Assembly (NCBI GenBank): GCA_003151625.1
Contig: PLYC01000021.1
Coordinates: 16,235-80,234, forward strand
Length of the DNA: 64,000 nt
Reading direction: 5' to 3'
Source: Candidatus Doudnabacteria bacterium
Lineage (GTDB): Bacteria > Patescibacteriota > Doudnabacteria > UBA920
Each line of letters begins with the position of its first letter. Positions within the stretch are counted from its first letter, which is position 1. A program made the translations under genes and the position numbers. The notes below the pieces were generated by a model. The model was not told the DNA's origin. It made no database searches and was given only the letters and a program-made list of their open reading frames with translations. Below are positions 25,721 through 44,678 of this stretch, piece after piece.

Positions 25721-25740
25721 GGCTAAATTTTGTAATGTTT

Positions 25741-25915: not shown

Positions 25916-26247
25916 AAAAACATTAAGGTTTTAGTTGTTATGGTAATATGTTATCGCTTAGTAACAAGCTTACGGCCGCGCCCCTGCGGGGCGGCGGCCT
26001 GCGCCGTTGTCCCACTGGCCGCTTTGCTGGCCGTGGGACACGGCGTCTCAAGGTTGGATCTGGAAAATTGCGGTTAAATCAGCCGGGCAGTCAGGGCAGG
26101 TTCAGAGGGAAATTAGGCAGTAAACTTAAATGTTTGTCAAAGTCAAAATGGGGGCAAAATTAAAAAACAATCTTCACTACTTGAAGATTATCGTTTAGGT
26201 CAAAAACAAACAAAGAGTTAAGCGTGCTACATAAGAATTCTTCTGTG

Positions 26248-26991
26248 CTACACTTCTTTTCGCATATTGGAGATTATTTTGTTAACGGTTCCCTCATCTA
26301 AAAACTCGCCAGTTTGTTTCCGGACGGCTCTGCGTATCTCTATTCGGGGCAAATCCCGCAAAGACCAGATAAGCTGGTTGCGCTTGGTAACGGCCGGGTC
26401 TTTGACTCTTAATTTGCCGAGCTTAATTTTAGGGTTTTGGTATTTGAGTTGTAACGGGTGGATGCTTGTCTTAAACTCTTTGGTAATAAAGTCCCTAATA
26501 ACGCGTTCTGAAGCGTAGGGGCTGATTTTAATGGCTAAGGGATAAGCGGCTAATTCGTTGTCTATGTGGGTTTTACCGTATTTATGTTTGGGCTTTTGTT
26601 TTAAGTCCGAGACTTTGCAAAGGCCTAAATTTTCGTCTTCCAGGTAAGTAATAAAATCCAAATCGTGAAAGATATGATACCAAATGGCGTAGGCAAAGCT
26701 ATTATTAAGCGCGTACTTTTTTATGAATTTTTCCCGAATTTCTTTTTCTATCTGTTCGGTCTTCTCATACAGAAAAGCCTCGCCTTCTAGAGATACGGGA
26801 TAAAATCGGGGCTTTACAGGCTTATCTTCCGGATTATCCGAACTAAGATATTCCGCCGGCACCACCTTGTCCGGCATATACTTGGCCCGCATTTCCCAAA
26901 CAGCATCGTTAAAATCCTGCTTTGCGGAAACTTCGTAAAAATATTCCAAGGCTTTTTTACGGCTTTCGGAGGGTTGTTTTTGTTTTGGCAT
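26248..26991 (-). CDS. Hypothetical protein (247 aa) in the island
   Basis: ORF with an acidic C-terminal portion. No recognised motif. Confidence 0.45.
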   Translation of the reverse strand: MPKQKQPSESRKKALEYFYEVSAKQDFNDAVWEMRAKYMPDKVVPAEYLSSDNPEDKPVKPRFYPVSLEGEAFLYEKTEQIEKEIREKFIKKYALNNSFAYAIWYHIFHDLDFITYLEDENLGLCKVSDLKQKPKHKYGKTHIDNELAAYPLAIKISPYASERVIRDFITKEFKTSIHPLQLKYQNPKIKLGKLRVKDPAVTKRNQLIWSLRDLPRIEIRRAVRKQTGEFLDEGTVNKIISNMRKEV

Positions 26992-27154
26992 AATTTATAA
27001 ATCTAAATCGTCAACATCAATACCCAAAGCTTCCATTCGGTTTAAGGCCTCATCCGGGTCATCCTGAAATTGCTCGGCCAGTTCTTCCTTTAAGCCGTCC
27101 TCGTCCAATTCCATTCTGATTTCGTCTTCCAAATCTTCAAGAGGCATAAAATAA

Positions 27155-30100
27155 TTACGCGGTCACTAAACTCTTGTTGTCATAGTAGTTTTCATAAACA
27201 AAATTATAAACTTCAAATTTTTTGAATTCACAATCTTGCTCTGTGTAGGTAGGCGCGGGTAGTTTCTCAAATAATATATCTGATATGGCGCTCTTTACCC
27301 CCGAGCGGTTGGTTTCAAAATCTCTCCAATGTGGGACAAGAAGCGGCTTAAGATTTTCCAATAATTCGTGTGCCGTGCCTTTAATTTTAGCAACTTCATC
27401 CGGGTTAAGATTTTCTTTAACCAATAAGTCAAAAATTGCCAACTCCTCCTCATTTAAATTTTCCTTCACCGCACGTTGTTCTTCCACGCTCAAATCTTTT
27501 GCAAGGGAAATAAGATCGTCAAAAAGCTTGTCAACATCATGCGCGCCACTGTTATATTCCTGTAACAAAGCAAGTAAGCGATCCATAAATTTGGTTCGTT
27601 TTTTGTTCTTTCTTACCATTTCCGCTATTTTTTGTTCTAGCTCTGCGCTCATGGCCTCCACTTGAAGGTTTTTGTTTTCTAGACCCTCAAAAAATGTATG
27701 CAGTGCTTCGGAATCCAACTTACTTAAATCTTTCAACTTTTTATGTGGCGATATTACGTACTCACCAGCTTGAATAGACTTATCAAGTAAGTCCTCTAAA
27801 TCTTTTTTTACCTGGGTAACATCCACACTTTGAGCGCCTACATCTCGAATACGCGAAGCCAATACGCGAACGGCAGTCACTTCTTTATAATAATCTTCCG
27901 CGCTTGGATCCGGCAACACCGATCGGTAGGCACTTTGTAAATCCGAGGCTAAGTTTAAAAACTTTTTTTTAATTTCCTGTTTGCCAATTATTAAGTCGGC
28001 GAATTTTTCTAACAATAACAATTTTTGATCACCTGGCGCTTCCAACAAAGGCTTAAGTTCAATTTGTATAGCGCTCAAGAAATGTTTTACGGTTTTAAGT
28101 GTACTTTTTAAATCTTCTAAAAGCTCGTCTTTGCTTTTGATTATTTCATCTTTGTCTACACCGCTGGCCGCATACAATGCCAAGGCACGCTCAATATTTT
28201 TGAATACGCCAATGTAATCAACTATTAGCCCGTTCTTTTTGTCTGCGTCAGCTACGCGGTTGGCGCGGGCAATCGTCTGCATTAAAGTATGATTTTTGAG
28301 TGGTTTGTCCAAATATAATGTGGAGAGGTTTGGCACGTCAAAGCCGGTCATCCACATAGCGCAGACAAAAATAATCCGCAGATTGCTGTCGGCTTTCTTG
28401 AATTCTTCTTCCAAATTTCCGTGAATTATCCTATCCCGAATCGGCTTAACGTCAATCTCAAACTCTTCCATATCGGCGATTTCGTTCTGATTGTCGCCCA
28501 GACTTACCATTACCGCCATGTCAACATTTTCGTGCTGTTCCAGTTTTGCCAGTATTTTTTCGTGCTCACGTTCATCCTTGGCTCGGGAAAGGTCCATGCG
28601 CAATTTAGCGATGTAGCGATCCCACTCTTTTTTAACTTTGTCGTACATCCGGAACGTGGTTTTTTTATCAATACAAACCACCATGGCCTTGCCATTATAA
28701 CCCCGCCCAATGTAGTGTTCTACAATATCCCGAGCAATAACATTTAAGCGATCTTCGCGGGTAATAATTTCGTAAAAATTGGAGTACTCGCGTTCTAATC
28801 TTTCTTCTTCATCTTCATCCAAATCATACCTATCCATAAGCTGGCCTAACTGCTCCTCAAGGTTTTCGTTGACGTTTTTTAGCCTCGGCACCCTGTTTTC
28901 ATAATACAGCGGCACAGTTGCGCCATCGGCCACGGACTGGCCAAAATTATACACCGAAACATAACTGCCAAAAGTTTTTACCGTTTCGGCTTCACCGTCT
29001 GTCATTAGCGGAGTGCCGGTAAATCCAATAAAAGATGCATTGGGAAGTGCTTTTCGCATATTTAGCGCCATGCGGTCATATTGGGTACGGTGCGCCTCAT
29101 CGGTCATTACGATAATATCCTCTCGTTCGGAAATGGCGCTGGCGATATCTTGAAATTTCTGAATTGTCGTAAATACTTGCCTATGGTCTGCTCTCAGCAA
29201 TTTTTTAAGATCTTCTACAGAATCCGCATGTACTTCTTTTTCATACACCGCGCCAACATTGGCAAAATTATCGTATGCTTGTCCGTCCAACTGTTTCCTG
29301 TCTGTAACAATAACAAAAGTAAAATTACCGGTAAGTTTTCGCAAAACCTTTTGCGAAAGCCAAACCATAGAATATGATTTGCCCGAGCCTTGGGTATGCC
29401 AAAACACGCCAAGTTTGCCGTCCATTTGCTTACGATTAACAACATGTTCAAACGCCCGGTTAACACCGTAATATTGGAAATACCGCGGCACTATCTTTTT
29501 AGTCTCTCCCTTTGATTCATCAAACAAAATAAAATTTTCAAAAATATCCAAAAGCCTTGTTTTATCGCATACTCCGCTAATTATCGTAGACAAATCTGTT
29601 CTTGGTTTATTATCTTCGCTGTCGGCTTTTTTCCACTCATTGAAAAATTCGTAGGGTGCTGTCAGCGAGCCAAATTTATTTTCTATGCCATTGCTGATAA
29701 TAATTCCCATATTATACCAAAACAATTTGGGAATAGTATCTTTGTAATCGCGAATGTTGTCTTTATATGCATCCACCAAACTCTTGTGAGACGCTTTGAG
29801 TTCTAATAATACAAGCGGAATACCATTTACAAACAGCACAACGTCGGTTCTTCTGGTATACATTTCTCCTACGATCCACAATTGCGAAACGGCCAGAAAA
29901 TGATTATTCTTTGGATTTTCAAAGTCAAAAAACCTTACCCGCTCCGGCTTGCTTTCGCCGTTGGATTGGACGACATTCACGCTCACGCCGTCCCGTAAAA
30001 GTTTGTAAATTTCCTGATTAGCTTTAACCAAGCTTAAATTTGACCTGTCCCGCGTCAATGCGTCCATTGCCTGAACTAAAGATTCTTGTGACAAACCTTT

Positions 30101-30286
30101 ATTTAATTTTACCAGAGCAGGTAACAAAAACTTTTTCAATACCACTTCACCTTGATTTTCCCTTCCAAGCTTTAAATCATCCTCATCCGCAAATGCGTTT
30201 ATATGACAATCCGAATTGCCCCAAACTTCCTTAATAAGTTTGATGACAGTCTGTTCAACCAAATTGTCTTCAGAAAATGGGTTCAT
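27155..30286 (-). CDS. hsdR: Type I restriction enzyme R subunit
   Basis: 1043 aa. Helicase motifs include 'MTDEAHRTQ' (DEAH box) and 'GFTGTP'. A long coiled C-terminal domain. Adjacent to hsdS and hsdM. Confidence 0.9.
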   Translation of the reverse strand: MNPFSEDNLVEQTVIKLIKEVWGNSDCHINAFADEDDLKLGRENQGEVVLKKFLLPALVKLNKGLSQESLVQAMDALTRDRSNLSLVKANQEIYKLLRDGVSVNVVQSNGESKPERVRFFDFENPKNNHFLAVSQLWIVGEMYTRRTDVVLFVNGIPLVLLELKASHKSLVDAYKDNIRDYKDTIPKLFWYNMGIIISNGIENKFGSLTAPYEFFNEWKKADSEDNKPRTDLSTIISGVCDKTRLLDIFENFILFDESKGETKKIVPRYFQYYGVNRAFEHVVNRKQMDGKLGVFWHTQGSGKSYSMVWLSQKVLRKLTGNFTFVIVTDRKQLDGQAYDNFANVGAVYEKEVHADSVEDLKKLLRADHRQVFTTIQKFQDIASAISEREDIIVMTDEAHRTQYDRMALNMRKALPNASFIGFTGTPLMTDGEAETVKTFGSYVSVYNFGQSVADGATVPLYYENRVPRLKNVNENLEEQLGQLMDRYDLDEDEEERLEREYSNFYEIITREDRLNVIARDIVEHYIGRGYNGKAMVVCIDKKTTFRMYDKVKKEWDRYIAKLRMDLSRAKDEREHEKILAKLEQHENVDMAVMVSLGDNQNEIADMEEFEIDVKPIRDRIIHGNLEEEFKKADSNLRIIFVCAMWMTGFDVPNLSTLYLDKPLKNHTLMQTIARANRVADADKKNGLIVDYIGVFKNIERALALYAASGVDKDEIIKSKDELLEDLKSTLKTVKHFLSAIQIELKPLLEAPGDQKLLLLEKFADLIIGKQEIKKKFLNLASDLQSAYRSVLPDPSAEDYYKEVTAVRVLASRIRDVGAQSVDVTQVKKDLEDLLDKSIQAGEYVISPHKKLKDLSKLDSEALHTFFEGLENKNLQVEAMSAELEQKIAEMVRKNKKRTKFMDRLLALLQEYNSGAHDVDKLFDDLISLAKDLSVEEQRAVKENLNEEELAIFDLLVKENLNPDEVAKIKGTAHELLENLKPLLVPHWRDFETNRSGVKSAISDILFEKLPAPTYTEQDCEFKKFEVYNFVYENYYDNKSLVTA

Positions 30287-30298
30287 AGATTGTTGTAA

Positions 30299-31765
30299 TT
30301 ATTCTATCCATTCTGGTTTAATTTTCCAATCTGTTTTTGGTAAAATTCCAAAATTGGATAGACAAAGTGTATTTCTTGGATCATCCATTGAAAAAGTTAT
30401 GGTAAAACCTCTACCGTCGTTATCTTTTGGTGGTTTAATTTTTCTTTCTAAATAATATTTCAGAGCATAAACTACCTTGAATCCCTTTATTTTGAATTCA
30501 TCAACAAATTTTGTAATCCTATTCACTCCTTTCTTTATTTCTCTAGCCTTGTCTGAATTTACGAAATAAGTACAATCGTATACATAACTTCCAACGATAG
30601 AACAATTGCATAATCGCGCTTCAATTCTCCCATTTTTAAATTCTTTGGCTTCAAAAAGAAGTTTATCCGATTTGATAACAAATTCAATTGATTCATGGCC
30701 AGTACATTTTATATAGAAAAGACACCCCTGTACGTCTTTGTCATTCGACTCATTTTTTACCTCCGTAATAACCTCGTCTGTTTTGCCATAAAAAAGTATG
30801 GGGCGCCAAGCACAAGGACTGTTATATCGAGTATTTTTTTCCCTAAAAATTTTGCCATTAAATAACCATTTCCTTTGCAATTTTGCTAGTTCGCCAACAA
30901 AAAAATTAATATGATCTTTTTCCAGCATGACATTGATACCATGAACTCGCTCTTTTCTTCTTTCCCAAAATGCTTGCGAACCATTTGAAAAATGCATTTT
31001 AAACCCAACCAACCCCTCTTTCTTATCGGTCAGCAACTCAAATACTTCATAATTTGGCATTCGGTGTAGTTTCTTTGTTTTTTTAAAAGAGTACCTAATC
31101 TGCCTGTATAGATCAAAAAAAGCTTGGTAAAAAGCAAAGCAGCGGGATAATTTTTCTGACAGTTCCTCAAAGGAAACTACTTTTGGTAGTCCATTTTCAC
31201 AAATTCTAAATTCAGTATCAGTTAGAGAATAATCGGAATGATAAAATGCATTCCTTATGTCATCATCAAAAAATGAATTAATTTTACTAATCAATTCTTG
31301 CTCGCCAATCTTTTCCGCTTCATTTTTAAGTGTTACTAATTTTTTTGTTGGCGACTGTGGTCTTACATGAAATGGTTTCTTTTTCCCCAATGATTCTCCT
31401 GGGAAAGGGAAAGGAACATAGTTTTTACCTTGTGCGCACCCCAATAAATTATACAGTATTTGGTACGGGGCCGACATCTCAATCGAGTGACAATATATAA
31501 GTAAGGCAACTCGAAAAGAGGATTTTTTTATACCCTTTTTGCTAATTTTTTGAAGTATTTTACTAAACTCGATTAAGGCTTCTTGTGCCTCAATAAAAGG
31601 GTCCCATCCGCCATCTTGTACACCGCTTACACGAAGCAGTGTGTAAATATACTGTAGCCCATTTGTGTCGCGTGCACGTTCAAAAAGATGGTCAAGATAA
31701 CTACGATATTCTTGATAATATGCTTTTTGTGAATCTTGGGTCTTATATTTTACAGTTGTGCCCAT
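30299..31765 (-). CDS. Uncharacterised 488-aa protein embedded between hsdS and hsdR. Candidate HEPN-domain abortive-infection-type effector.
   Basis: It sits where prrC sits in prr loci. It has no P-loop. It contains 'DDDIRNAFYHSDY' (an Rx4H HEPN-like motif). It has a Cys-rich C-terminal half. Confidence 0.55.
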   Translation of the reverse strand: MGTTVKYKTQDSQKAYYQEYRSYLDHLFERARDTNGLQYIYTLLRVSGVQDGGWDPFIEAQEALIEFSKILQKISKKGIKKSSFRVALLIYCHSIEMSAPYQILYNLLGCAQGKNYVPFPFPGESLGKKKPFHVRPQSPTKKLVTLKNEAEKIGEQELISKINSFFDDDIRNAFYHSDYSLTDTEFRICENGLPKVVSFEELSEKLSRCFAFYQAFFDLYRQIRYSFKKTKKLHRMPNYEVFELLTDKKEGLVGFKMHFSNGSQAFWERRKERVHGINVMLEKDHINFFVGELAKLQRKWLFNGKIFREKNTRYNSPCAWRPILFYGKTDEVITEVKNESNDKDVQGCLFYIKCTGHESIEFVIKSDKLLFEAKEFKNGRIEARLCNCSIVGSYVYDCTYFVNSDKAREIKKGVNRITKFVDEFKIKGFKVVYALKYYLERKIKPPKDNDGRGFTITFSMDDPRNTLCLSNFGILPKTDWKIKPEWIE

Positions 31766-31773
31766 AAGTGTAA

Positions 31774-33024
31774 TTATTTTAGTTCTCGTTTTCCTGTGAC
31801 TAACTGGGGAATCAAAAGATCGCGAATCTGGGAAAGATTTTGATTTTCATCCTGCAAAGACAATACTAAATCAAAATGTTTTTTTACTAGGTGGCTAAAT
31901 TCATTAAGAATTTCTGAACTTGGAATAATGACCTTAACATCCTTAACTTGTATCGGACTTAAATTTTGCTGGGCAGCACCATTAGACATCCCCTCCAGTT
32001 TTTGCTGAAATCTCTTTTGCCTAAATAATAAGTAAATGTATTCTCTTTTATTTGTTCCCGTTGGATTTAATTTCGCGACTCGTTGATTTAACAAATAATC
32101 TGAACCATATACAACACAAATACGTCCAACATTCCCAGTCAATGAAAGTAGAATGTCACCACTATTCAAAATGCAATTTTCTGGCAATTTTGAAGGTAGG
32201 TCATCAATAAACGAGTCAAAATTTAATACAAATTTTCCATCATGAACATTTTTTATGGTAACTATTTTATACTTTCCGCTTTCTTGGTATGTTGACCCTT
32301 TGAAAGGAAACCCTGAAATAACATTTACGAGTTCACTAATCTTTCCAACTTTCCAACCCTCTGGAATCATACCGTATTCGGTGCCGCTGTTAATCATTTT
32401 TTCTTTTTCATGGCCGGGAAATTTGAATTTTATAAACCACTCGGTATAGAGAAGCTGGGACATTTGCTCCAGGGCTTTGATGCGTTTTTCGTTATTTTCT
32501 ATTAGGTCGTCGTAGGCGGAGAGGACAGAAGCAATGCGTGTTTGGGTTGGGAGCTCTGGAAGCTCAATTTGCAAACCGTAAAGTAAATTTATTGTGTACG
32601 CTTTTTGGGACGATCCAATAGTACATTTATTTAATTCTGATTTACCTTGCGGTGAAAGAAGCCAATAATATAACCATTGACCATTTATTCCATGAAAATT
32701 TCTAAACCATGTTAAATTTCCATCCTTAAAATAAAATTCTTCGTTCTCTTTTACCAAATACGGATTTCCGATTGTTCCGACAGAGGTCAACAATAGATCA
32801 CCCTTTTGAGGCACACCGTATTTGGCCTTTATTTCCTCAAATTTATCTCTAGAAATATATATTAAGTCGCTTACTTCTGCAGAGCTTCTTTGTTTTTCGC
32901 TGATTTCCTTTCCACGATAGAAAGGAACGCCTGATGATAAATACTCATCAGCAAAAATTCTCTTGCTTGAGGTTATTTCACAATAATCCTTAATTTTTAC
33001 TTTTTGAAAACTTACCATAATCAT
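31774..33024 (-). CDS. hsdS: Type I R-M specificity subunit with two target-recognition domains
   Basis: The TRD starts 'KIKDYCEITSSKRI...GVPFYRGKEI' and 'LPEGWKVGKISELVNVISGFPFKG' are repeated. The conserved C-terminal 'LIPQLVTGKREL'. Confidence 0.82.
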   Translation of the reverse strand: MIMVSFQKVKIKDYCEITSSKRIFADEYLSSGVPFYRGKEISEKQRSSAEVSDLIYISRDKFEEIKAKYGVPQKGDLLLTSVGTIGNPYLVKENEEFYFKDGNLTWFRNFHGINGQWLYYWLLSPQGKSELNKCTIGSSQKAYTINLLYGLQIELPELPTQTRIASVLSAYDDLIENNEKRIKALEQMSQLLYTEWFIKFKFPGHEKEKMINSGTEYGMIPEGWKVGKISELVNVISGFPFKGSTYQESGKYKIVTIKNVHDGKFVLNFDSFIDDLPSKLPENCILNSGDILLSLTGNVGRICVVYGSDYLLNQRVAKLNPTGTNKREYIYLLFRQKRFQQKLEGMSNGAAQQNLSPIQVKDVKVIIPSSEILNEFSHLVKKHFDLVLSLQDENQNLSQIRDLLIPQLVTGKRELK

Positions 33025-34602
33025 TTATAAAATACTTTCCCAATCGTCCTGGATATTTTTTTCCAGCTTGTGAGCTTCGACGGTTAAACCTGTAAATTCA
33101 CTCATTAATTCTTTCATTCGCGCGTTAAAGTCCACATCGCTCATTTCTTTTTCTATAATCTCCACATAACGCCCAGGATTAAGTGAGTAGTCGTTAGCTC
33201 GAATTTCCTCAAGAGTTGCAACTTTGCATCGGCCTTTAATGTCTTGATATTTTTCTTCGCCTTTTTCTTTGCGATAGCGGCGAACAACACCGGCGATTTC
33301 TTGTATTTGCTCATCTGTCCAGTCGCTATGAGCACGGTCAATTTCGGTAAAAATATCTTGCGCGTTTATAAATAAAACTTTGTTTTGCCGTTCGCTGCCG
33401 CTTTTGCGTTTGTCAAAAAACCACAAGGTACAGGAAAGTGTAGCGTTCATAAACATATTTGTGCCAACGGAAACAATTGCATCCACCATTCCGGCGTCTA
33501 CCATTTTTTTGCGGATTTCTTTTTCCGCATTTCCGGCATCACTGGAAGCGTTTGACATAACAAAGCCTGCCCGTCCTTGCGGGTTTAAAGCACTAGCAAA
33601 CATTTGCATCCATAAATAATTAGCGTTGCTGATTTCACCTTTACCAGTAAGCGGCAATCCTAAATTGTATCGCGGGTCGCCTTGAATTTTTGCTGGATCA
33701 ATTACAATTTGTTTGTTCTTGTCTTTGCCTTTTACATTAAACGGCGGATTTGCAAGGACAAAGTCAAAAGCGCCAACGCTGTTAAACGTATCGGTATAAA
33801 AAGAATTTACTTCCGCAATTTTACCCGACAAACCGTGAATAGCTAGGTTCATTTTGGCCGTGCGAATGTTGCTACTACCTTTTTCTTGGCCATACAGTGC
33901 AACTTCGTTCATAACTTGAGTTTTCTTTTCGGAATGCGCTTTAACAAAATTTGCAGACTGCACAAACATACCGCCGCTTCCGCAGGCGGGGTCGTATATT
34001 TTTCCATGGTATGGCTCAATAATTTCTACCAGTAATTTAACAATAGATTGCGGCGTAAAAAACTCGCCGCCTTTGGCTCCTTCGGCGCGCGCAAACTCAC
34101 CAAGGAAATATTCGTAAATTTCCCCGAATGCGTCACCCTCAATGTCATCGGGGATTTGATTAAAATTTTTCAGTAAGGTGATTAATATCTGACTATTTTC
34201 GCCTGGAATTTTGTGAAGCGAAGTATAATCTTGCGGCAAAACACCGGCAAGATCGGTATTTTCTTCTTCTATTGCCTTCATCGCATCATTAATTTTTTTG
34301 CCAATATTTGCACTCTCAGGTAGGCTCATTAAATAAGAATACGTGGCAATTTCTGGCAAATACAGAACACCCTTGGATTTATAATGGTCAGGCGTAATAG
34401 GTTTATTTCTTCCGGAATAAGCTTTAACAGCGCGCTCTGCAACAATCTCCGACTGGAATCTCTTAAAACGTACGTCCGCAAACTTAAGAAAAATAAGCCC
34501 TAAAATTGGCTCGGAAATTTCGTTTAATTTTAGCCCGGAGTTTGCCCGAAGCTGTACCGCCGCAGACCAAAGCCTTTCGTGAAGTTGTTTTCTGGTTGTC
34601 AT
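33025..34602 (-). CDS. hsdM: Type I R-M N6-adenine DNA methyltransferase subunit
   Basis: Motif IV 'VLANPPFN', motif I 'DPACGSGGMF' and an HsdM N-terminal domain. Confidence 0.9.
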   Translation of the reverse strand: MTTRKQLHERLWSAAVQLRANSGLKLNEISEPILGLIFLKFADVRFKRFQSEIVAERAVKAYSGRNKPITPDHYKSKGVLYLPEIATYSYLMSLPESANIGKKINDAMKAIEEENTDLAGVLPQDYTSLHKIPGENSQILITLLKNFNQIPDDIEGDAFGEIYEYFLGEFARAEGAKGGEFFTPQSIVKLLVEIIEPYHGKIYDPACGSGGMFVQSANFVKAHSEKKTQVMNEVALYGQEKGSSNIRTAKMNLAIHGLSGKIAEVNSFYTDTFNSVGAFDFVLANPPFNVKGKDKNKQIVIDPAKIQGDPRYNLGLPLTGKGEISNANYLWMQMFASALNPQGRAGFVMSNASSDAGNAEKEIRKKMVDAGMVDAIVSVGTNMFMNATLSCTLWFFDKRKSGSERQNKVLFINAQDIFTEIDRAHSDWTDEQIQEIAGVVRRYRKEKGEEKYQDIKGRCKVATLEEIRANDYSLNPGRYVEIIEKEMSDVDFNARMKELMSEFTGLTVEAHKLEKNIQDDWESIL

Positions 34603-34653
34603 ACTAATTTATATTTAAAAATAACTGCTCGCGCTTTAATTTTTAGTCCTTTG

Positions 34654-35922
34654 CTATTTCAATAAATCCTCAAGCTCACAGGAGAGCAGGGCGGATTTGT
34701 TAAGCACGATTTGTTCTTTCTGGTTTAGGTTGTCCGCGGTAAGTCTAATAACTTTTGTGATTATAGCGTTGCCAATAACAACGTGGTTGGTTTTCTTTAA
34801 GTAGTTTTCGGTTTTTTCGTAAAACAGTGTTATAAAGCGCTTTAGCTTGTCGCTTAGTTTATCTTTCATATTTCCCGTAACCAATGCGACTACTTTTTCG
34901 TTTATTTCCGTCGGTATATTCCCCTCCGCGAATACTATCCAATAATCGCTTATGGCATAGGCAAAGCGCACTGGCATTTTATCTTTAGTTTCGTAAAAAT
35001 AAACAAAACGGTAATTCTGGGAACTAAAATCCTGGCCAATGGCTATTTCGCGCAACTCGCCGACTGTATTTATATCGTAAGAGTTTACAAGCCGGAGATA
35101 ATTTTCCAGCCAAGTTTCAAGCCAATGCGTAATAAAAGTCTGATCCACAAATAGCGGAGTTAAATCCTGCTGTAAGTTTGTTTTGTTTACTTTGTTCATT
35201 TGCACGGTCAGCCGGTCAAACAGCGCCTGCAAATGCGTAACATCAACCTCCTTGGCTTTAAGATAGTCCAAATCGGGGACAGTTTTCTTTTCCATATACC
35301 ACAGCAGGTCGTAAATGTCGCGGCCTTTTTCTTCGTATATTTCCTTGCCCACGCCACGCTGTCCACGTAAAAATATAGCGGCAATTTTACTGGCCATAAG
35401 CGCAGACATATTGTAAGTCTTTATTACGAATGACAGCTGGTCGTGGTTTACGGGTATCCGTTCCGTAACCGCTTTGGGAGCCGTAAAATGGTTCAAATCA
35501 ATTTTAACGTGCACCTGTTTTGAAGGGTGGCTCATTCCCAGCTCGTCGCCGATAATGAATTTTAAAAGCAACCCGCGGCCGTTGGTAATTTTTATGTTCA
35601 AAAGATCCGGCCCGGTGCTGTAGGTTTCCAAAAAATGTTCCTGCAACGCTTCCTTAAGGTTGTTAAGCAAGCTGTCGGTAGGGGCTTCCGCAATTTCAAA
35701 ATCCAAATCAACGGACATTCTGTTCAACTCATGGCAAATGCGCAAGGCGGAGCCGCCGTACATAGTCCAATTGCTGTAGACCGGGTGGTGATAAATAAAA
35801 TTTAACAGGTAATACTGCAATTCCTCTTTTAAGGCGTTGCGCTGAACTTCAATATCCACCTGTCCGTAACGAGACAGGTCTTCAAGTTTTCTTTTTAGTA
35901 AAATAATTATTTGGTTATTCAT
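34654..35922 (-). CDS. AbiEii/AbiGii-family nucleotidyltransferase (DUF1814) toxin-like protein
   Basis: 'TMYGGSALRICHELNRMSVDLDF' matches the AbiEii NTase signature 'GGTAL...R.S.DLDF'. It overlaps the upstream partner by 8 bp. Confidence 0.65.
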   Translation of the reverse strand: MNNQIIILLKRKLEDLSRYGQVDIEVQRNALKEELQYYLLNFIYHHPVYSNWTMYGGSALRICHELNRMSVDLDFEIAEAPTDSLLNNLKEALQEHFLETYSTGPDLLNIKITNGRGLLLKFIIGDELGMSHPSKQVHVKIDLNHFTAPKAVTERIPVNHDQLSFVIKTYNMSALMASKIAAIFLRGQRGVGKEIYEEKGRDIYDLLWYMEKKTVPDLDYLKAKEVDVTHLQALFDRLTVQMNKVNKTNLQQDLTPLFVDQTFITHWLETWLENYLRLVNSYDINTVGELREIAIGQDFSSQNYRFVYFYETKDKMPVRFAYAISDYWIVFAEGNIPTEINEKVVALVTGNMKDKLSDKLKRFITLFYEKTENYLKKTNHVVIGNAIITKVIRLTADNLNQKEQIVLNKSALLSCELEDLLK

Positions 35923-36535
35923 TGTTTAAATATTTTTTAATCATCTCATAAAATAAAGTCTGCTCCTTTTTGTCCATTTCTTCAATATCAATGCGCAGGT
36001 CGCGGATTAGCCCATCCACCATTTCCGGCTTTATCCCCCGAAACTGTCTGGTCTTAAAATACAACAGGTCAAACAATGCTTTGGAAGGCGCGGCAATAAA
36101 AAAATCAAATTTTCCTTTTACCAAAGAGAATCCGGAAAATAATTCTTTTTTAATTGAATTGTAGCCAAAGTTTCCGGCCCGCGTCTGGTAGTCTCTGGTA
36201 ACTTTTAGCGTAACCGAGGTAATAGTCTGGATGGCTTCGGTTGTTAGTTCGTAATACTGCAAAGCCGCCCAGGAGCTGACGTAAGACGGCGTCCTAATGA
36301 CGTTGGCCAGATAAAATTTGTAGGAAATATCCGCCCTGTTGTTTTCGTAAAAGTAAGTTGTTGTATACAGCCCTTTTTTAAACTGGATAATATCCTTGGA
36401 CTTCAAAGAGCGGCCGATATAGCTATCAACCGTGGTATTTTTTAGGCCGTACTGCTTGCTTAACTGGTAAATAGCGCTTTTGTTAAAATACGGCAAACTC
36501 TTGAGCTGTTCTAACAATATTTCTCTATATTTCAT
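35915..36535 (-). CDS. Probable AbiEi-type antitoxin/transcriptional regulator, partner of AbiEii
   Basis: 206 aa immediately upstream of, and overlapping, the AbiEii-like gene. This is the typical AbiEi size and arrangement. No strong motif, so it is called by context. Confidence 0.45.
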   Translation of the reverse strand: MKYREILLEQLKSLPYFNKSAIYQLSKQYGLKNTTVDSYIGRSLKSKDIIQFKKGLYTTTYFYENNRADISYKFYLANVIRTPSYVSSWAALQYYELTTEAIQTITSVTLKVTRDYQTRAGNFGYNSIKKELFSGFSLVKGKFDFFIAAPSKALFDLLYFKTRQFRGIKPEMVDGLIRDLRIDIEEMDKKEQTLFYEMIKKYLNNE

Positions 36536-36631
36536 AATTGTGATGTAATCATAACAATGATGAAATACTTTGTCAATATGGATAGTTATTTGGATATAAA
36601 TTTAAGAAAATACCCTTTATTTATGGGTATT

Positions 36632-36790
36632 TTGCTTCCTTATGGCTTTTTATTGTAATTCTGGATCCCGTCCAGTCAAGGGTAAAACCAAATTATTTGC
36701 CATAGGCCATAAATTGGTTTTAATCCCGTTGACTGTCCAGGCGTTCCAGAATTTTGTTTTCGCCATAATCAGTAAGCAAAAAAGATTATG
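36632..36790 (+). promoter_or_regulatory. Conserved ~160-bp intergenic module, copy A (divergent region between abiEi and the radC-like gene)
   Basis: Aligns along its length with 38489-38651. Shared blocks: 'ttgcttccttatggctt', 'gtcaagggtaaa', 'tttatttgcc.t.ggccataaa', 'tttaatccc.ttgactg' and 'gccataat.agtaa'. The hairpin positions carry compensatory differences between the copies. Confidence 0.6.
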
Positions 36791-37270
36791 GAATACCAAG
36801 TCAATGTCAATTATCGGTTTCAAGCAGTTAATGAAAAGGAGGCAAAAGAAAAAGCTGTAAAATATTTAGCTAACACCCTAAAAGTCCAGCCAATGTCCAA
36901 GGCAGTATGCAGTCCCCTTGAGATTGCCGACCAGTGCTGGGATTTTAGGAAAAAGGACAAGGAGCACTTTTGCGTGTTCTTTTTAAATACCCAAAACCAA
37001 ATTATCAGCCGGGAGATTATTAGCATTGGAACTTTGAACGCCAGTCTAATTCACCCGCGGGAATGTTTTAGGACGGCAATATCTAAAAACTGCGCCTCAG
37101 TCATTTTTGTCCATAACCATCCAAGCGGCAGTCTAGAACCCTCGGACGAAGACATTGCCGTAACCAAGCGCCTTAAAGATGCCGGCAAACTTATCGGCAT
37201 CGAAGTTTTGGACCATGTGATTGTAACGGCTGAGTCCCATAAAAGCCTTAAGGAACAAGGCTTGGTATAA
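36788..37270 (+). CDS. RadC-like JAB-domain protein (DUF2466)
   Basis: JAMM/RadC signature 'VIFVHNHPSGSLEPSDEDIAVTKRLKDAGKLIGIEVLDHVIV'. Confidence 0.8.
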   Translation: MEYQVNVNYRFQAVNEKEAKEKAVKYLANTLKVQPMSKAVCSPLEIADQCWDFRKKDKEHFCVFFLNTQNQIISREIISIGTLNASLIHPRECFRTAISKNCASVIFVHNHPSGSLEPSDEDIAVTKRLKDAGKLIGIEVLDHVIVTAESHKSLKEQGLV

Positions 37271-37276
37271 GCCAGA

Positions 37277-38062
37277 CTAACTCTTTGAGCCCTTTTCGGT
37301 TTCGATTTTGAATTCTTCAAATTTGTTTTTATATGCAATAAAAAGATCTTGGGCCAAATCCAAAATTACTTTGGTATGTTTTTCCATTGTCGGCGATATT
37401 CTCTGACGCCTTGTTCTATAGCCTCGAGTTTTTAATAAGTTATCCGAGGTATTTATATCCATCTCGTGAATAATTTGATTCCTTACGGTAAAAGCATCTT
37501 TAAGTGCGTTCATTCTGTCAGCAGTGAATATCTTATTTGTGCTTAACCCAGAAGCGTCAGAAACCATACACAGTTGTCCAACGGACTGGAGGCTGTCTTT
37601 GGTCATACTGCTTAAGTATTCTTTTAAAAATATTTCCCTTGGATTTTGGTCTATCAAAGCCAAGGCAACTGTATTTAATATCTTTTCCGGACTCTTTTTG
37701 TCTATACCATTTTTAACGTAATTTCTAAATTTTTCTTGGGCATTTTTGTCTACAGTTATCAATTTTGAAAGTTTGGTTTTGGTCAGCTGTTTAACAAATA
37801 CGTCAAGTCCAGCGCAAGCAAAAATCAGCATTGCACGATATAGGTCTTGTTGGTAATGGGTAGATGGGCCACCCTTTGAGCCGCGTCTGATAATTTTATA
37901 CAGCAAATTGAAGTTATTAACGGACTCTGCTGTCTTTAGCAAAATATTGTATTCAAAACTAAAAAGACTGTCGTCCTTCTCAGCCGAAAGGTGAATTTTA
38001 TAAAATCCTAATTCCCGTTTTTTAACAGCCTTTTTCGCCTTACTGGATTTAAGCTTTGCCAT
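37277..38062 (-). CDS. Hypothetical 261-aa protein with a C-terminal HEPN-like Rx4HxxD motif
   Basis: 'AFTVRNQIIHEMD' resembles the HepT/HEPN motif R-N-x-x-x-H. The N-terminus is Lys-rich. Convergent with radC-like and preceded by a 112-aa ORF. Confidence 0.45.
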   Translation of the reverse strand: MAKLKSSKAKKAVKKRELGFYKIHLSAEKDDSLFSFEYNILLKTAESVNNFNLLYKIIRRGSKGGPSTHYQQDLYRAMLIFACAGLDVFVKQLTKTKLSKLITVDKNAQEKFRNYVKNGIDKKSPEKILNTVALALIDQNPREIFLKEYLSSMTKDSLQSVGQLCMVSDASGLSTNKIFTADRMNALKDAFTVRNQIIHEMDINTSDNLLKTRGYRTRRQRISPTMEKHTKVILDLAQDLFIAYKNKFEEFKIETEKGSKS

Positions 38063-38074
38063 AAAGATTTTACT

Positions 38075-38413
38075 TCAGGAAACATTATCGCCGTCAGATG
38101 GCATGGCCGTTGCAATTGCGTTGGTAAATAACGAATCACAGTGGACTAACAAAGACTCAATTAAACGCCCATGGTATATTGCGTAGACTTCGGAACTGAT
38201 AGTTTTGCTCTTAGGTTTAATAATAAAAAAGGTCAGCTCTTTGCCACTTTCTACTTCCGGACGGAACCACGCCAAATATTTCCATTGTTGCGCCGTATGT
38301 GTAAAATCGCCATCTTTATCATAAGACCAAGTGACTATTAGCCCGTCATCAATTGCCTTCTTAAAAGAGGATAGCACTTTATTCGGAGTGGAAGTTTCTA
38401 AATGTACGGCCAT
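38075..38413 (-). CDS. Hypothetical 112-aa protein, upstream partner of the HEPN-motif ORF
   Basis: ORF tightly linked to the HEPN-motif gene, with a 12-bp gap. No MNT (GSxxxGxxxxxSDxD) motif seen. Confidence 0.4.
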   Translation of the reverse strand: MAVHLETSTPNKVLSSFKKAIDDGLIVTWSYDKDGDFTHTAQQWKYLAWFRPEVESGKELTFFIIKPKSKTISSEVYAIYHGRLIESLLVHCDSLFTNAIATAMPSDGDNVS

Positions 38414-38488
38414 AAAATTTTCATTATTTATAGCACTATTTTAAAACTTTACTAATATAAAGTCAATTTTGCAAAAAAACCAATTCCT

Positions 38489-38651
38489 TTGCTTCCTTAT
38501 GGCTTCTCATTATACTGGCCGTTTACGGCCGGTCAAGGGTAAATTTCATTTATTTGCCGTGGGCCATAAAATCAATTTAATCCCTTGACTGCCGTAACCT
38601 GCGGCCAGTATATGATTGCCATAATAAGTAATCAAGAAAGGAGTTAATATG
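38489..38651 (+). promoter_or_regulatory. Conserved ~160-bp intergenic module, copy B
   Basis: See copy A. Hairpin 'ctggccgtttacggccgg' here versus 'ctggatcccgtccag' in A. A downstream 'ggccag' here versus 'tccag' in A. Confidence 0.6.
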
Positions 38652-38846
38652 CCTAAAGTCAAAAAGGCAGTTAGCAAGAGGCAGGGAATCACGCCGGAGA
38701 TGAAGTTAAACATCATCAAGGCGTCCTTGCAGAGAAGTATCAATTACTTTATGGAATTGAGACACTCTGTAGACCCCTCTTCCAGCGATTATCACGATTT
38801 CGGAAAAAAGGTTTCCGCGTATATCGCTGTAAAGCAGACAGTCTAA
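38649..38846 (+). CDS. Small hypothetical protein (65 aa) downstream of module B
   Basis: ORF with an 'aaaggag' RBS. Basic N-terminus. Confidence 0.35.
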   Translation: MPKVKKAVSKRQGITPEMKLNIIKASLQRSINYFMELRHSVDPSSSDYHDFGKKVSAYIAVKQTV

Positions 38847-38898
38847 CAAACACCAAAACAAAAACAAAAATCTTTCTTTAATTTTTAACCTTATCCCA

Positions 38899-39057
38899 AT
38901 GAAAATTATGACTGCACAGTTTGTCTACGAGATTACCTGTCCAAGATGCCAATACACATGGAGCGCTACCAAGGAAGAGACCTTTGACCTTGATATTGTG
39001 TCCTGCTCCCAATGTGGTTCCTGTGAGCTTGAAATTACCAAAAAGTTAGAAGCTTAA
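38899..39057 (+). CDS. Small zinc-ribbon protein (52 aa, 'MKIMTAQFVYEITCPRCQYTWSATKEETFDLDIVSCSQCGSCELEITKKLEA')
   Basis: Hand-translated. A CPRC...CSQCGSC four-Cys ribbon. Not in the track because it is under 60 aa. Confidence 0.3.
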   Translation: MKIMTAQFVYEITCPRCQYTWSATKEETFDLDIVSCSQCGSCELEITKKLEA

Positions 39058-39298
39058 AATCAAAACAAAAACAAAATTTTTTTATGGTCGCAAATTTGCT
39101 AAAACCTCCAAAAACGCGTTAAACTGAATTCATTAGCGGAATAAAATCACGGAATTGCCGTAATTCCTGGATTAAGAGGTTGTAATGCTGTGAACAGAAG
39201 GCTACCACAAAAGCCCGAACTTTGGTTCGGGTTTTTATTTATGGTAACTTAGACATTCCTTTGTCTTTTATGCCAAAGTCTGGTAAGTTTAATACATT

Positions 39299-41782: not shown

Positions 41783-42997
41783 CTATTCCTTAGTTTCATC
41801 AGCTTTAACTTCTTCAACTGCTACCGCTTCTTTTGAAGCTTCCGATGTTTCCGCAACAGTTTCCTCGCCACCTAGTTTTTCCCCGTTAATATCTATTTTC
41901 CATCCCGTCAAACGCGCGGCGAGGCGGACGTTTTGTCCGGCTTTGCCAATGGCTAAAGACAACTGATCTTCTAACACGCCGACTTTGGCTTCTTTGGCTT
42001 GGTCGTTTAATTGGACGTTTAAAATTTTGGCCGGTGAAAGAGCGTTGGCAATAAATTTTACCTGGTCATCGGAAAATTCTATAATATCAATTTTCTCCCC
42101 GCCCAGTTCGGCCATTACGGTTTGCACTCGGCTGCCCTTTTGCCCCACGCAACTGCCAATTGGGTCTATGCCGTCCTGGTTACTAAACACGGCAATTTTG
42201 GAGCGCGAACCCGCTTCCCTGGCCAGGGCTTTAATTTCCACACTGCCGTTAAAAATTTCCGGCACTTCCAGTTCAAAAAGCTTGCGCACCATATCGGGAT
42301 GCGAACGGGACAAAGTAATTTTTGGCCCCTTAGTAGCCGGTTCAACATGGAGGATTAAAACTTTTATGCGCTGGCCAATGGTATATTTTTCCCCGCGAAT
42401 TTGCTCGCTGGGGAACAGCACGCCGGCGGCTTTGCCTAAGTCTACCAGCACGGTGTCGCCTTCCACTCTCTGGACAACCCCGTTTTGCAAAGTGCGCTCT
42501 TTGGCTTTGAAATCGGAAAACTGAACATTTCTTTCGGCTTCGCGTAATTTTTGGATAATAACCTGCTTGGCGGTTTGCGCGGCAATGCGGCCGTACGAGG
42601 TGCCGGTTTTGGGAGTGATTTCCGTGCGGATTTCGTCACCGACTTTGTGTTTATGAGATTTTTTTCCGCCGGTCGTTCGAGACCCTGAGGGGTCCTCAGA
42701 CCCCCGAAGGGAGGAGGATCCGCCTTTGGCGGAAATTTCCTGCGCCGCTTCCAGGGTAATGAATTTTTGGGGGTCTTCTTCCGCCTCGGTCTCGGTTTCT
42801 ACCACGGTTTTTACGTCAAAAACTTTGGTAGCCATATTCTCCGGGTCAAATTCCACCACAATATTCTGGTTCTTCTCGCCGTAATCTTTCCGGAAAGCCG
42901 CGGCCAAAGACGCTTCTATCATAGAAACTAAATCCTGGCGGCTAATGCCTTTTTCTTCTGCTATTTGGTCTAAAGCTTGTTCTAGCTGTTCGTTCAT
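41783..42997 (-). CDS. nusA: Transcription termination/antitermination factor NusA, carrying an in-frame repeat-element insertion in the N-terminal linker
   Basis: S1 'VVQRVEGDTVLVDLG', and KH domains 'GSRSKIAVFS' and 'IGSCVGQKGSRVQTVMAELGGEKIDII'. The insert 'GGSSSLRGSEDPSGSRTTGGK' is shared with tsaD. Confidence 0.9.
   Translation of the reverse strand: MNEQLEQALDQIAEEKGISRQDLVSMIEASLAAAFRKDYGEKNQNIVVEFDPENMATKVFDVKTVVETETEAEEDPQKFITLEAAQEISAKGGSSSLRGSEDPSGSRTTGGKKSHKHKVGDEIRTEITPKTGTSYGRIAAQTAKQVIIQKLREAERNVQFSDFKAKERTLQNGVVQRVEGDTVLVDLGKAAGVLFPSEQIRGEKYTIGQRIKVLILHVEPATKGPKITLSRSHPDMVRKLFELEVPEIFNGSVEIKALAREAGSRSKIAVFSNQDGIDPIGSCVGQKGSRVQTVMAELGGEKIDIIEFSDDQVKFIANALSPAKILNVQLNDQAKEAKVGVLEDQLSLAIGKAGQNVRLAARLTGWKIDINGEKLGGEETVAETSEASKEAVAVEEVKADETKE
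42667..42733 (-). repeat. Palindromic ~63-bp element inserted in-frame in nusA
   Basis: 'ggcggatcc.cctcccttcg.gggtctgaggacccctcagggtctcgaacgaccggcgg' is near-identical to 53751-53815 in tsaD. Confidence 0.7.
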
Positions 42998-43004
42998 TTT
43001 AATA

Positions 43005-43083
43005 CAAACTAATTAACACGGATTTAGAAACGAATGAACACGGATCTGTGTTAATTCGTCTGCGATATTAGTGTTCATCCGTG
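43005..43083. repeat. About 80-bp promoter-proximal repeat, copy 1, upstream of nusA
   Basis: 'caaactaattaacacggatttagaaacgaat.aacac.gatc.gtgtt.attcgt.tgc..tattagtgtt.at.cgt' is shared with 44066-44146. Confidence 0.6.
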
Positions 43084-43158
43084 GTTTCTAATAAAAAAGA
43101 TGAGCATCGCTCATCCAATGAATCTGTACAATCTTTTCTTCAACTGGTAACTGTAAAC

Positions 43159-43661: not shown

Positions 43662-44060
43662 TTATTTAGGTAAATATTTCAGCCTCACCTGCTCTTTTTC
43701 CCAAACGTCTTTTTCTTTTTTATAATTTTTAAGCATACCGGTTAAAATTGCAACCAGCCAAACAAGTCCGATTAAAACAATTAATAAAGCCACAAAATGG
43801 GTGCCAAAAAACATGGCATTTTCATAACGGCACAGGTACCATAAAATTTCCACAAGCCCAATGCTCAAAAACAAATGATAAAACTTCTGCCTGTATTTGC
43901 CGTCCACGGGATTGGGCGCCAAAATCGAAGAAATTTTTAGCACAATGCTCAACAAAATTAAAATAACCCCACTCAAAAAAAACAGCTTTTCCCGCGGGCT
44001 AATGAAAGCTGTATTTATTTGAAAAAGGTTTTGGTAAGTAAATAACTGTTTTATGTTCAT
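43662..44060 (-). CDS. Hypothetical membrane protein (3-4 TM)
   Basis: Hydrophobic ORF. Preceded by repeat copy 2. Confidence 0.4.
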   Translation of the reverse strand: MNIKQLFTYQNLFQINTAFISPREKLFFLSGVILILLSIVLKISSILAPNPVDGKYRQKFYHLFLSIGLVEILWYLCRYENAMFFGTHFVALLIVLIGLVWLVAILTGMLKNYKKEKDVWEKEQVRLKYLPK

Positions 44061-44065
44061 ATAAA

Positions 44066-44146
44066 TTCAAACTAATTAACACGGATTTAGAAACGAATTT
44101 ACACAGATCAGTGTTCATTCGTTTGCAGTATTAGTGTTTATTCGTT
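44066..44146. repeat. About 80-bp promoter-proximal repeat, copy 2
   Basis: See 43005-43083. Confidence 0.6.
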
Positions 44147-44150
44147 ATTG

Positions 44151-44678
44151 CTACTTCTCGTACAATACCGCGTAGTGATAGCCATCGGCCTGGAGGTCTT
44201 TGTCTTTTCGGAAACCCGCGGACTGCAGCATAATTTCCAGTTTTTCCTGATCCAATCTCTTGTCCAGCGGCGGACCAAAAGGAGTGGCGGTGCGTTTCCA
44301 TTCTACCGCGACCACGCGCCCGCCGGATTTTAACACGCGATAAATGTTTTTAATCAATTCCTGTTTTTGGTCTATTTCGTGCAAAATACTGCCAATAATA
44401 ACCAAGTCGCAGGAGCCGGGCAAAATATCCAAAAGCGGTTTGCTTAAATTGGCCTGAATAACCCGCACATTTTTATATCCAAACTGGTTGGCAATGGAAA
44501 TTGTGGCGGCCAATTTAACCGTTTGTACGTCAACCGCGTAAACCGTTCCGGTGGGGCCAATCATTTGCGCGGCCGGTAAAACATAAAACCCGTTGCCGCA
44601 GCCCAAGTCTGCCACTGTCTGGCCCATCATAAGCCCTGTTTGCGCCATAACAGCGCTTGGATTTAAAAATTGACTCAT
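44151..44678 (-). CDS. Class I SAM-dependent methyltransferase
   Basis: Motif I 'VADLGCGNGFY', with acidic motifs II/III. Confidence 0.7.
   Translation of the reverse strand: MSQFLNPSAVMAQTGLMMGQTVADLGCGNGFYVLPAAQMIGPTGTVYAVDVQTVKLAATISIANQFGYKNVRVIQANLSKPLLDILPGSCDLVIIGSILHEIDQKQELIKNIYRVLKSGGRVVAVEWKRTATPFGPPLDKRLDQEKLEIMLQSAGFRKDKDLQADGYHYAVLYEK

Follow-up and report, generated by a model that had tools for sequence, protein, structure and literature searches.

A covarying hairpin with minus-strand promoter boxes upstream of RadC-like and 65-residue protein genes in Patescibacteria: a candidate family of single-stranded-DNA promoters

A duplicated module precedes two genes

We analysed a stretch of 64,000 nucleotides from a Candidatus Doudnabacteria bacterium (assembly GCA_003151625.1, contig PLYC01000021.1, positions 16,235 to 80,234 of the forward strand), called the window below. 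The window holds two copies of an intergenic module of about 160 bp. Copy A lies directly upstream of a gene for a RadC-like protein of the JAB family, and copy B directly upstream of a gene for a conserved protein of 65 amino acids (aa); the coordinates are collected in Table 1. A first-pass annotation of the sequence had reported that positions 36632-36790 are duplicated at 38489-38651, that each copy stops at the ATG of a plus-strand gene and that both copies lie between divergent genes. Our alignment confirmed the duplication from end to end, the two start codons were found at 36788 and 38649, and both copies face divergent genes in the window. According to the alignment and a repeat search, the copies are homologous over their full length, with about two-thirds of the alignment columns identical. 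The common blocks are TTTGCTTCCTTATGGCTT, GTCAAGGGTAAA, TTATTTGCC..GGCCATAAA, TTTAATCCC, TTGACTG and GCCATAAT, and the motif GCCATAA occurs three times per element. A search of the entire window yielded copies A and B only and no third one. The window belongs to a metagenome contig of 247 kb (ENA ERZ27254241), with Candidatus Doudnabacteria and other Patescibacteria as closest relatives.

The 65-aa open reading frame (ORF) encodes a genuine conserved small protein, for which we collected 51 homologues with 17 invariant residues. It matched no family in Pfam, PHROG or NCBIfam, and its predicted two-helix fold had no significant match in the Protein Data Bank.

Table 1. Features of the two module copies and their genes. 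Positions refer to the window unless a locus is named. RBS, ribosome-binding site.
Feature	Position	Strand	Remark
Copy A (RadC-type lineage)	36631..36790	+	Extends from the TTTGCTTCC box as far as the start codon of the RadC-like gene; 155 bits, covariance model
Copy B (65-aa-type lineage)	38488..38651	+	Up to the ATG of the 65-aa gene; 187 bits, covariance model
RadC-like JAB gene, 160 aa	36788..37270	+	Proposed to be controlled by copy A; Pfam PF04002, E 3e-43
Conserved 65-aa gene	38649..38846	+	Downstream of copy B; predicted two-helix hairpin protein
Long imperfect hairpin, copy A	36632..36779	- (strand proposed to fold)	RNA and DNA folds
Long imperfect hairpin, copy B	38489..38631	-	RNA and DNA folds
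-35 box TTGACT, copy A	36674..36679	-	Base-paired in the hairpin
-10 box TACAAT, copy A	36652..36657	-	Reverse complement of the invariant ATTnTA; internal loop, T(-12) alone paired
-35 box TTGACC, copy B	38531..38536	-	Promoter scan
-10 box TATAAT, copy B	38509..38514	-	Promoter scan
Invariant TTGACT, gene-proximal arm, copy A	36729..36734	+	Complement is the template-arm partner of the -35 box; invariant alignment columns
Invariant TTGACT, gene-proximal arm, copy B	38585..38590	+	Invariant alignment columns
Conserved CATAAT, copy A	36764..36769	+	29 nt past TTGACT; proposed transcript start (GCCAUAAU...)
Conserved CATAAT, copy B	38620..38625	+	Alignment conservation
RBS AAAGGAG, copy B	38637..38643	+	Directly outside the hairpin base
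Upstream terminators, examples	L063:3110-3170, L151:3780-3838, L156:3060-3124, others	+	Conserved

The module belongs to a family found in Patescibacteria

Through the two proteins we fetched 80 loci from genomes of the Genome Taxonomy Database (RadC) and 37 metagenome loci (65-aa protein). A profile built from copies A and B matched more than 60 further sites on the plus strand of these loci, with E values of 1e-13 to 1e-47, and the similarity between A and B is therefore far beyond chance. The family comprises 60 distinct element sequences in genomes and metagenomes of Patescibacteria. A covariance model assigned 84-187 bits to full-length canonical copies, all in plus orientation, and lower scores to truncated or short variants; the palindromic reflections on the opposite strand reached 29-57 bits. 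The orientation is identical in all copies, and each copy extends to the RBS and ATG of one of two kinds of gene, a RadC-like gene of 160 aa or a gene of about 65 aa (64-78 aa). These two genes are mostly adjacent in varying order, with one copy of the element each, and there are two or, in some loci, three copies per locus.

RadC-type and 65-aa-type copies differ consistently in their middle helices throughout the alignment, which indicates that the duplication is old. Because copies A and B fall into these two old lineages, one per gene, they are not a recent duplicate, and the recently duplicated promoter that the first-pass annotation had considered as a refuting possibility was not borne out. 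We also dismissed the idea that hairpin promoters are a general feature upstream of RadC genes, since neither the profile nor the covariance model detected a copy at 67 more distant RadC loci, nor was there a consistent hairpin. In a blastn search in distant mode, none of 72,556 plasmids and 50,697 phages matched the element, and three DNA-pattern scans of viral contigs returned nothing or chance matches of 15-mers.

Some copies deviate from the canonical form. One variant (L064:1106-1348) carries an insertion of about 80 nt within the 5' arm, and three short variants (L166:3020-3159, L164:3015-3154 and L154:131-262) lack the apical helices. The short form in L166 retains the minus-strand promoter described below and has a small extra ORF between the element and RadC.

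Covariation maintains a single long hairpin

Folding showed that each copy forms one imperfect hairpin of about 140 nt. With RNA parameters, the minimum free energy was -54.3 kcal/mol for copy A (z score, -7.8) and -65.9 kcal/mol for copy B (z score, -8.2), and the reverse strands folded at least as well. With DNA parameters, the minus strand reached -35.1 kcal/mol (z score, -8.2) and -38.4 kcal/mol (z score, -9.0) for copies A and B, respectively. The apical loop is ATA, GTG or GTA and is closed by GCC/GGC. For the covariation test, the fold of copy B was projected on an alignment of 59 sequences, with shuffled alignments and slid pairing partners as controls. Standard pairs occupy 84% of the cells, as against 37-51% with slid partners. 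Both sides of a pair have changed in 317 cells, compared with 122 +/- 7.5 in the shuffles, and the covariation score of 0.239 compares with 0.103 for the shuffles and 0.04-0.07 for the slides. Several pairs come in three or four base combinations, such as GC 27, UA 22, CG 6 and AU 2. Independently, RNAalifold identified compensatory changes in 12 of 23 pairs. Since the covariation far exceeds that of both controls, we conclude that the structure is maintained.

The first-pass annotation had described two small hairpins that differ between the copies in a compensatory manner and had proposed covariation analysis with additional homologues as a check. The compensatory differences are real and the covariation is strong over the whole family, but ctgga/tccag and ggccg/cggcc mainly pair across the arms of the one long hairpin. 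The local mini-hairpins are alternative pairings within an arm that are not conserved in the RadC-type lineage, and they were discarded.

Sigma-70 promoter boxes lie on the minus strand

A promoter scan identified TTGACC-16-TATAAT in copy B, with 11 of 12 matches, and TTGACT-16-TACAAT in copy A. Both promoters are on the minus strand inside the 5' arm, and the scan found no canonical plus-strand promoter in either copy. By the criteria of the scan, 57 of the 60 copies have a sigma-70 promoter on the minus strand and five of the 60 have one on the plus strand, the latter at unrelated positions. The -10 box conforms to TAnAAT in 58 of 60 copies (26 TATAAT, 18 TAAAAT and 13 TACAAT), the -35 boxes are of the types TTGACN, TTGATC and TTTACG, and the spacer is 16 nt long in 44 copies. 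In the alignment, this family -10 box is the reverse complement of ATTnTA, the best-conserved unpaired box. A search for a plus-strand promoter at canonical spacing from TTGAC or CATAAT was negative; the spacer between these two boxes is 28-33 nt.

The boxes occupy defined places in the hairpin. In DNA folds of the minus strand, the -35 box is paired (on average 4.9 of 6 nt), whereas the -10 box is mostly unpaired (on average 2.0 of 6 nt) and lies in an internal loop. T(-12) is the only paired residue of the -10 box in 31 of 58 copies, so that the junction between duplex and single strand falls at -12/-11. The distance from the end of the -10 box to the hairpin base is always 21 nt, with the -35 box on the loop side and the -10 box on the base side of the gene-distal arm. 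In the folded minus strand, this box-bearing arm is the 3' arm and reads 5' to 3' from the loop to the base. Transcription of the downstream gene from a folded template strand requires just this arrangement. In double-stranded DNA, the same promoter is directed away from the element's gene. The structure looks like part of a promoter acting on folded single-stranded DNA. The first-pass annotation had taken the compensatory pattern to argue against a mere promoter; this argument is reversed, as the best-conserved unpaired box is a -10 box on the other strand.

The folding molecule appears to be DNA rather than RNA

The first-pass annotation had proposed a conserved RNA structure such as a leader, a riboregulator or an antitoxin-like RNA. 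We compared the two strands of each copy to evaluate this proposal. DNA parameters make the minus strand the stabler one in 55 of 60 copies (mean, -30.9 vs -27.8 kcal/mol), and in 29 of 29, 12 of 12 and 6 of 6 clusters at 90, 80 and 70% identity, respectively. With RNA parameters, it is more stable in 42 of 60 copies. The gap does not come from G.T pairs (65 on the plus strand, 43 on the minus strand); it arises from mismatches. In a fold restricted to Watson-Crick pairs, the single mismatches of the sense strand include 79 pyrimidine-pyrimidine and 20 purine-purine oppositions, 71 of 118 are C.U, U.C or C.C, and there are 3 G.U as against 16 A.C. A different count of 213 G.T vs 88 A.C, obtained from a MAFFT alignment with the plus-strand structure of copy B, was rejected for register and template bias and replaced by the strand-neutral Watson-Crick-only fold together with fold energies for each strand. 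For comparison, the plus strand is usually the stabler one in 67 unrelated RadC upstream regions, and the template strand is the stabler one in the Frpo regions of plasmid F (-118.3 vs -111.4 and -123.5 vs -113.8).

The surroundings of the element also bear on how it could be transcribed. In seven loci, a RadC gene ends with its stop codon 0-8 nt ahead of the element, and in many others an intrinsic terminator on the plus strand stands 25-50 nt upstream, which appears to leave no room there for a promoter ahead of the hairpin, although read-through transcription may occur in arrays. No upstream promoter from which both arms would be transcribed is conserved across the family. The apical helices are missing in the short variants L166, L164 and L154, which is in keeping with a spacer and not with a conserved RNA fold. 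At the gathering threshold, Rfam 15 reported one tRNA in the window and no family at either copy. A permissive search of 36500-38750 gave one chance-level match on copy B (mir-2007, E 7.2, 38510-38614) and none on copy A. The Rfam radC motif matched neither the window nor 18 other RadC loci when cmscan was run at gathering and permissive thresholds. Taken together, the evidence points to DNA over RNA as the folding molecule. A conserved and compensated structure thus stands, and it is probably not a sense RNA, whose fold is the weaker one in 55 of 60 copies and in all clusters, with few G.U relative to A.C oppositions and no Rfam match.

Next to these elements we observed a recurrent terminator, GAGCGGT-N7-ACCGCTC-TTTT followed by about 25 nt, directly upstream of many 65-aa-type copies irrespective of the upstream gene. 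This conserved terminator looks like an insulating part of the module.

A candidate single-stranded-DNA promoter

We favour the reading, with a probability of about one half, that the element represents a new, non-homologous family of single-stranded-DNA (ssDNA) promoters working in the mode of Frpo/ssi. In this model, the minus strand, from which the RadC-like and 65-aa genes are transcribed, would become single-stranded through transfer by a type IV secretion system (T4SS), rolling-circle displacement or DNA uptake. The inverted repeat of about 140 nt would then fold into a hairpin, whose gene-distal arm could serve as the non-template strand with a duplex -35 box (TTGACN), a 16-bp stem spacer and a largely unpaired -10 box (TAnAAT), the latter acting as a pre-opened bubble in its internal loop. 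The sigma-70 RNA polymerase would bind there, copy the other arm towards the hairpin base and continue on the single-stranded template, the complement of the RBS and the gene. The predicted product is an mRNA starting near GCCAUAAU with a leader of about 30 nt that includes the RBS. Once the complementary strand is made, the hairpin would be gone, the boxes would point away and the gene would be off.

An ssDNA promoter jointly explains the coupling to the genes, a promoter on the seemingly wrong strand, the covarying hairpin, the unpaired -10 box, the strand bias, the upstream terminators and the genomic context. The hairpin, its covariation, the promoter boxes with their strand and geometry, the strand bias and the gene context were all computed directly; from these we infer that the minus strand would at times occur in single-stranded form in the cell and that the polymerase would initiate on it. 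A stricter version, in which the family is truly ssDNA-only and the RadC-like and 65-aa genes are 'zygotic' genes, read only from strands that have just arrived or been displaced, is a tentative proposal that we consider less likely than not. The principle of ssDNA promoters is already known, and the patescibacterial family is, as judged by its sequence, unrelated to the known ones. We found no literature linking RadC genes or Patescibacteria with ssDNA promoters.

Several observations weigh against an ssDNA promoter. TTGAC and CATAAT of the plus strand are conserved in the alignment beyond what pairing needs. This extra conservation hints at an additional function in double-stranded DNA; contacts between sigma and the template strand of the -35 box could account for it as well. 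In duplex form, the minus-strand promoter is also expected to fire to the left, possibly in a role of its own, and the -10 box of copy B is partly paired in the minus-strand DNA fold. Covariation in a long palindrome can in principle arise by template-switch repair instead of selection. The T4SS and relaxase-like genes near the family members are convergent with the module, unlike the layout of plasmid F. Many loci, including the window, have neither a Rep nor a relaxase gene, and the island of the window (serine recombinase, type I restriction-modification, AbiE and HEPN) holds no transfer genes. T4SS clusters of Patescibacteria are related to the conjugation systems of monoderms; they mostly lack recognisable relaxases, and co-option for other functions has been proposed for them (PMC12102498). 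Promoter activity and the transcript start are predictions from computation.

The main alternative, which we consider unlikely, is an ordinary divergent promoter region in double-stranded DNA that is palindromic. The minus-strand promoter would then serve leftward genes or an antisense or small RNA, the RadC-like and 65-aa genes would use CATAAT as a -10 box with a weak or absent -35 box, and the repeat would be an operator, a cruciform or a palindrome kept by repair. Indeed, the minus-strand promoter is near consensus and would work in double-stranded DNA, both copies in the window face divergent genes, the plus-strand CATAAT and TTGAC surpass their pairing partners in conservation, the CATAAT of copy A could be a weak -10 box, and the thrice-occurring GCCATAA could bind a protein. 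However, the left flank over the family has 31 co-directional, 14 divergent and 16 unclassified cases. A divergent gene is thus present in 14 of 45 classifiable copies, against 31 with a co-directional gene or its terminator. As the left flank is not conserved, the minus-strand promoter has no constant target in double-stranded DNA. Even in the window, the divergent genes have near-consensus minus-strand promoters of their own, TTGACA-17-TATGAT (36576->36548) for the AbiEi-like gene and TTGACT-17-TAAAAT (38466->38438) for a 112-aa gene, and therefore do not require the element's promoter. Palindromes bound by proteins keep their sequence, whereas the stems here covary with up to four pair types; the strand stability bias and the unpaired -10 box would not be expected of a purely double-stranded site, and a plus-strand spacer of 28-33 nt is non-functional for sigma-70. 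A hairpin in the sense mRNA, that is, a 5' leader or intercistronic structure stabilising, processing or regulating both messages, seems improbable to us. The structure is highly stable and covarying, it directly precedes the RBS, and a read-through transcript of a RadC -> 65-aa array would include it. Yet the sense fold is the less stable one and its mismatches are mostly C.U, U.C and C.C, the first copy of an array appears to have no upstream promoter, with terminators or stop codons in the way, the best-conserved unpaired box is the -10 box of the other strand, and the lack of Rfam matches, the radC motif included, and the dispensable apical helices also disagree with it.

We give similarly little credence to a signal mainly for replication or transfer, either a single-strand origin primed by RNA polymerase or an oriT-like site, with gene expression as a secondary effect. 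In L144 and L166, the small gene is followed immediately by a rolling-circle Rep gene on the minus strand. In known rolling-circle plasmids, the displaced strand is the rep-sense strand; if this rule holds here, the minus strand, which is the strand proposed to fold, would be the displaced one in these two loci because rep is on the minus strand. The fold is orientation-specific, and Frpo transcripts prime DNA synthesis as well, according to Masai and Arai 1997 as cited both in PMC12672017 and in bioRxiv 10.64898/2026.01.09.698686. On the other hand, a fixed distance to the RBS and ATG, two or three copies per locus and the same two genes are traits of a promoter and not of an origin, the loop motif TAGCGT of the single-strand origin ssoA is not in the sequence, and Rep and relaxase genes are missing from many loci, the window among them. 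Least probable by far is a miniature mobile palindromic element or a recently duplicated promoter with a functionless structure. Two or three repeats per locus and sharp boundaries would suit such an element, but every copy precedes a member of one of two gene families, always with the same orientation and at a set position relative to the start codon, the copies form two old lineages each bound to its gene, and neither target-site duplications nor copies elsewhere in the 64-kb window or the flanks were found.

Genomic context of the family and of the window

We surveyed 108 neighbouring proteins with Pfam. The recurrent families are the HerA/DUF87, TraG P-loop, TrwB and TraG-D coupling-protein domains, and further M23 peptidases, rolling-circle Rep (PF23343), serine recombinases and DNA methyltransferases. 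Parts of diversity-generating retroelements, bAvd and reverse transcriptase, are also among them: bAvd-like proteins account for four of the 108, and a reverse transcriptase of this type (RVT_1) is encoded directly upstream of the module in L066 (2745-3758) and L151 (2788-3747). Transfer-type genes (type IV coupling protein, VirB4-like, M23 and Replic_Relax) or a rolling-circle Rep gene adjoin the element in L063, L066, L067, L069, L071, L151, L156, L144 and L166. In four of these loci (L063, L066, L069 and L156), RadC is followed by convergent genes for a protein of 174-183 aa, an M23 peptidase and a VirB4/TraG-like ATPase of 799 aa; in three others (L067, L071 and L151), it is followed by a protein of about 295 aa, with a Replic_Relax match in L071, and a coupling protein.

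In the window, the module is situated at the end of a probable integrated island (23939-39100) beside a tRNA gene (23939-24010). The island encodes a large serine recombinase overlapping the tRNA end, HsdR (27155-30286), an unassigned protein of 488 aa, HsdS, HsdM, AbiEii, the AbiEi-like protein, RadC, a HEPN protein (RiboL-PSP) and ORFs of 112, 65 and 52 aa, the last of which is a Zn ribbon. A second copy of the tRNA 3' end delimiting the island was not found. Between the serine recombinase gene (23973-25508, minus strand) and a 71-aa ORF (25948, plus strand), there is a direct repeat of 66 nt (80%; 25738-25803 and 25848-25913), which could be a pair of binding sites for a recombinase or regulator.

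Other repeats of the window lie outside the island. A direct repeat of 99 nt with an internal inverted repeat (84% identical; 42992-43090 and 44055-44153) stands directly upstream, on the minus strand, of nusA (41783-42997) and of a 132-aa ORF (43662-44060). The pair is possibly another duplicated module with a leader or promoter role. An inverted repeat of 74 nt (96% complementary; 42662-42735 and 53741-53814) has arms 11 kb apart, one of them within the nusA ORF. Tandem coding repeats of about 258 nt at 3171-5258 suggest a gene for a large repetitive surface-type protein.

Implications

Single-stranded-DNA promoters are known from a few classes of enterobacterial plasmids, where they were defined by experiment. 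If the patescibacterial element is one of them, the principle would extend to a distant and uncultured lineage of the Candidate Phyla Radiation, and this family, which is compact and has consensus boxes, a pre-opened -10 box and abundant covariation, would be the first ssDNA promoter with a structure backed by comparative covariation. It would also provide a combined signature of sequence and structure for comparative-genomic searches for ssDNA promoters. The RadC-like JAB protein and the 65-aa helical protein would be candidates for a part in establishment or anti-defence. The element, which is linked with genes for coupling proteins, VirB4-like and relaxase-like proteins and Rep, would bear on whether the ubiquitous T4SSs of Patescibacteria, which are currently thought to be mostly non-conjugative because relaxases are missing, handle DNA. 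If the ssDNA-only version were true, the MPF-FATA-like T4SSs of Patescibacteria, or rolling-circle elements, would really move single-stranded DNA between cells.

Comparison with known systems

Four known systems resemble the element in part. The radC RNA motif of Rfam occurs upstream of radC, anti-restriction, ssb and integrase genes. Both the motif and our element are conserved structures that precede RadC-like genes in mobile-element contexts. Unlike the motif, for which cmscan was negative, the element is a single long hairpin with promoter boxes. The early promoters of phage N4 are hairpins of 5-7 bp with a 3-nt loop that are read by a dedicated phage (virion) RNA polymerase. They share with the element a promoter defined by a DNA hairpin, extruding there from single-stranded or supercoiled DNA; the element differs in having sigma-70 boxes in a hairpin of 140 nt, a comparison made by description only. 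The single-strand origin ssoA is likewise an orientation-specific long hairpin in the displaced strand that engages RNA polymerase through -35/-10-like boxes, and Rep genes are neighbours in two of our loci. However, the CS-6 loop motif (TAGCGT) is in neither copy A nor copy B, and the product is predicted to be an mRNA and not a short primer of the ssoA type, because the element is tied to an RBS and start codon and each gene has a copy of its own.

The closest counterpart is Frpo/ssi of IncF and IncI plasmids (class 1, with the newer classes 2 and 3). There, stem-loops in the transferred strand rebuild the -35/-10 boxes and drive early 'zygotic' expression until they are inactivated by synthesis of the complementary strand (PMC9849209, PMC11541004, PMC12672017). 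Such ssDNA promoters head anti-defence genes (PMC11541004), and there are several classes of them that are mutually non-homologous (PMC12672017). Frpo1 and Frpo2 are near-duplicate hairpin promoters before different leading genes (PMC9849209). In common with Frpo/ssi, the element has a long imperfect hairpin in the template strand that would offer -35/-10 boxes to the host sigma-70 polymerase, a site just ahead of small establishment-type genes, an occurrence as diverged duplicates in front of different genes (92% identity at a distance of 5 kb for Frpo1 and Frpo2), a template strand with the stabler fold in both plasmid F and the patescibacterial element, and a promoter that is expected to be silent or to point the wrong way in duplex DNA. 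It differs in its host phylum, Patescibacteria, in the absence of sequence similarity and in hairpin length (about 140 nt for the element vs about 330 nt for Frpo). Moreover, the element has near-consensus boxes in loop-to-base direction, whereas a simple scan of the F Frpo regions gave no canonical pair.

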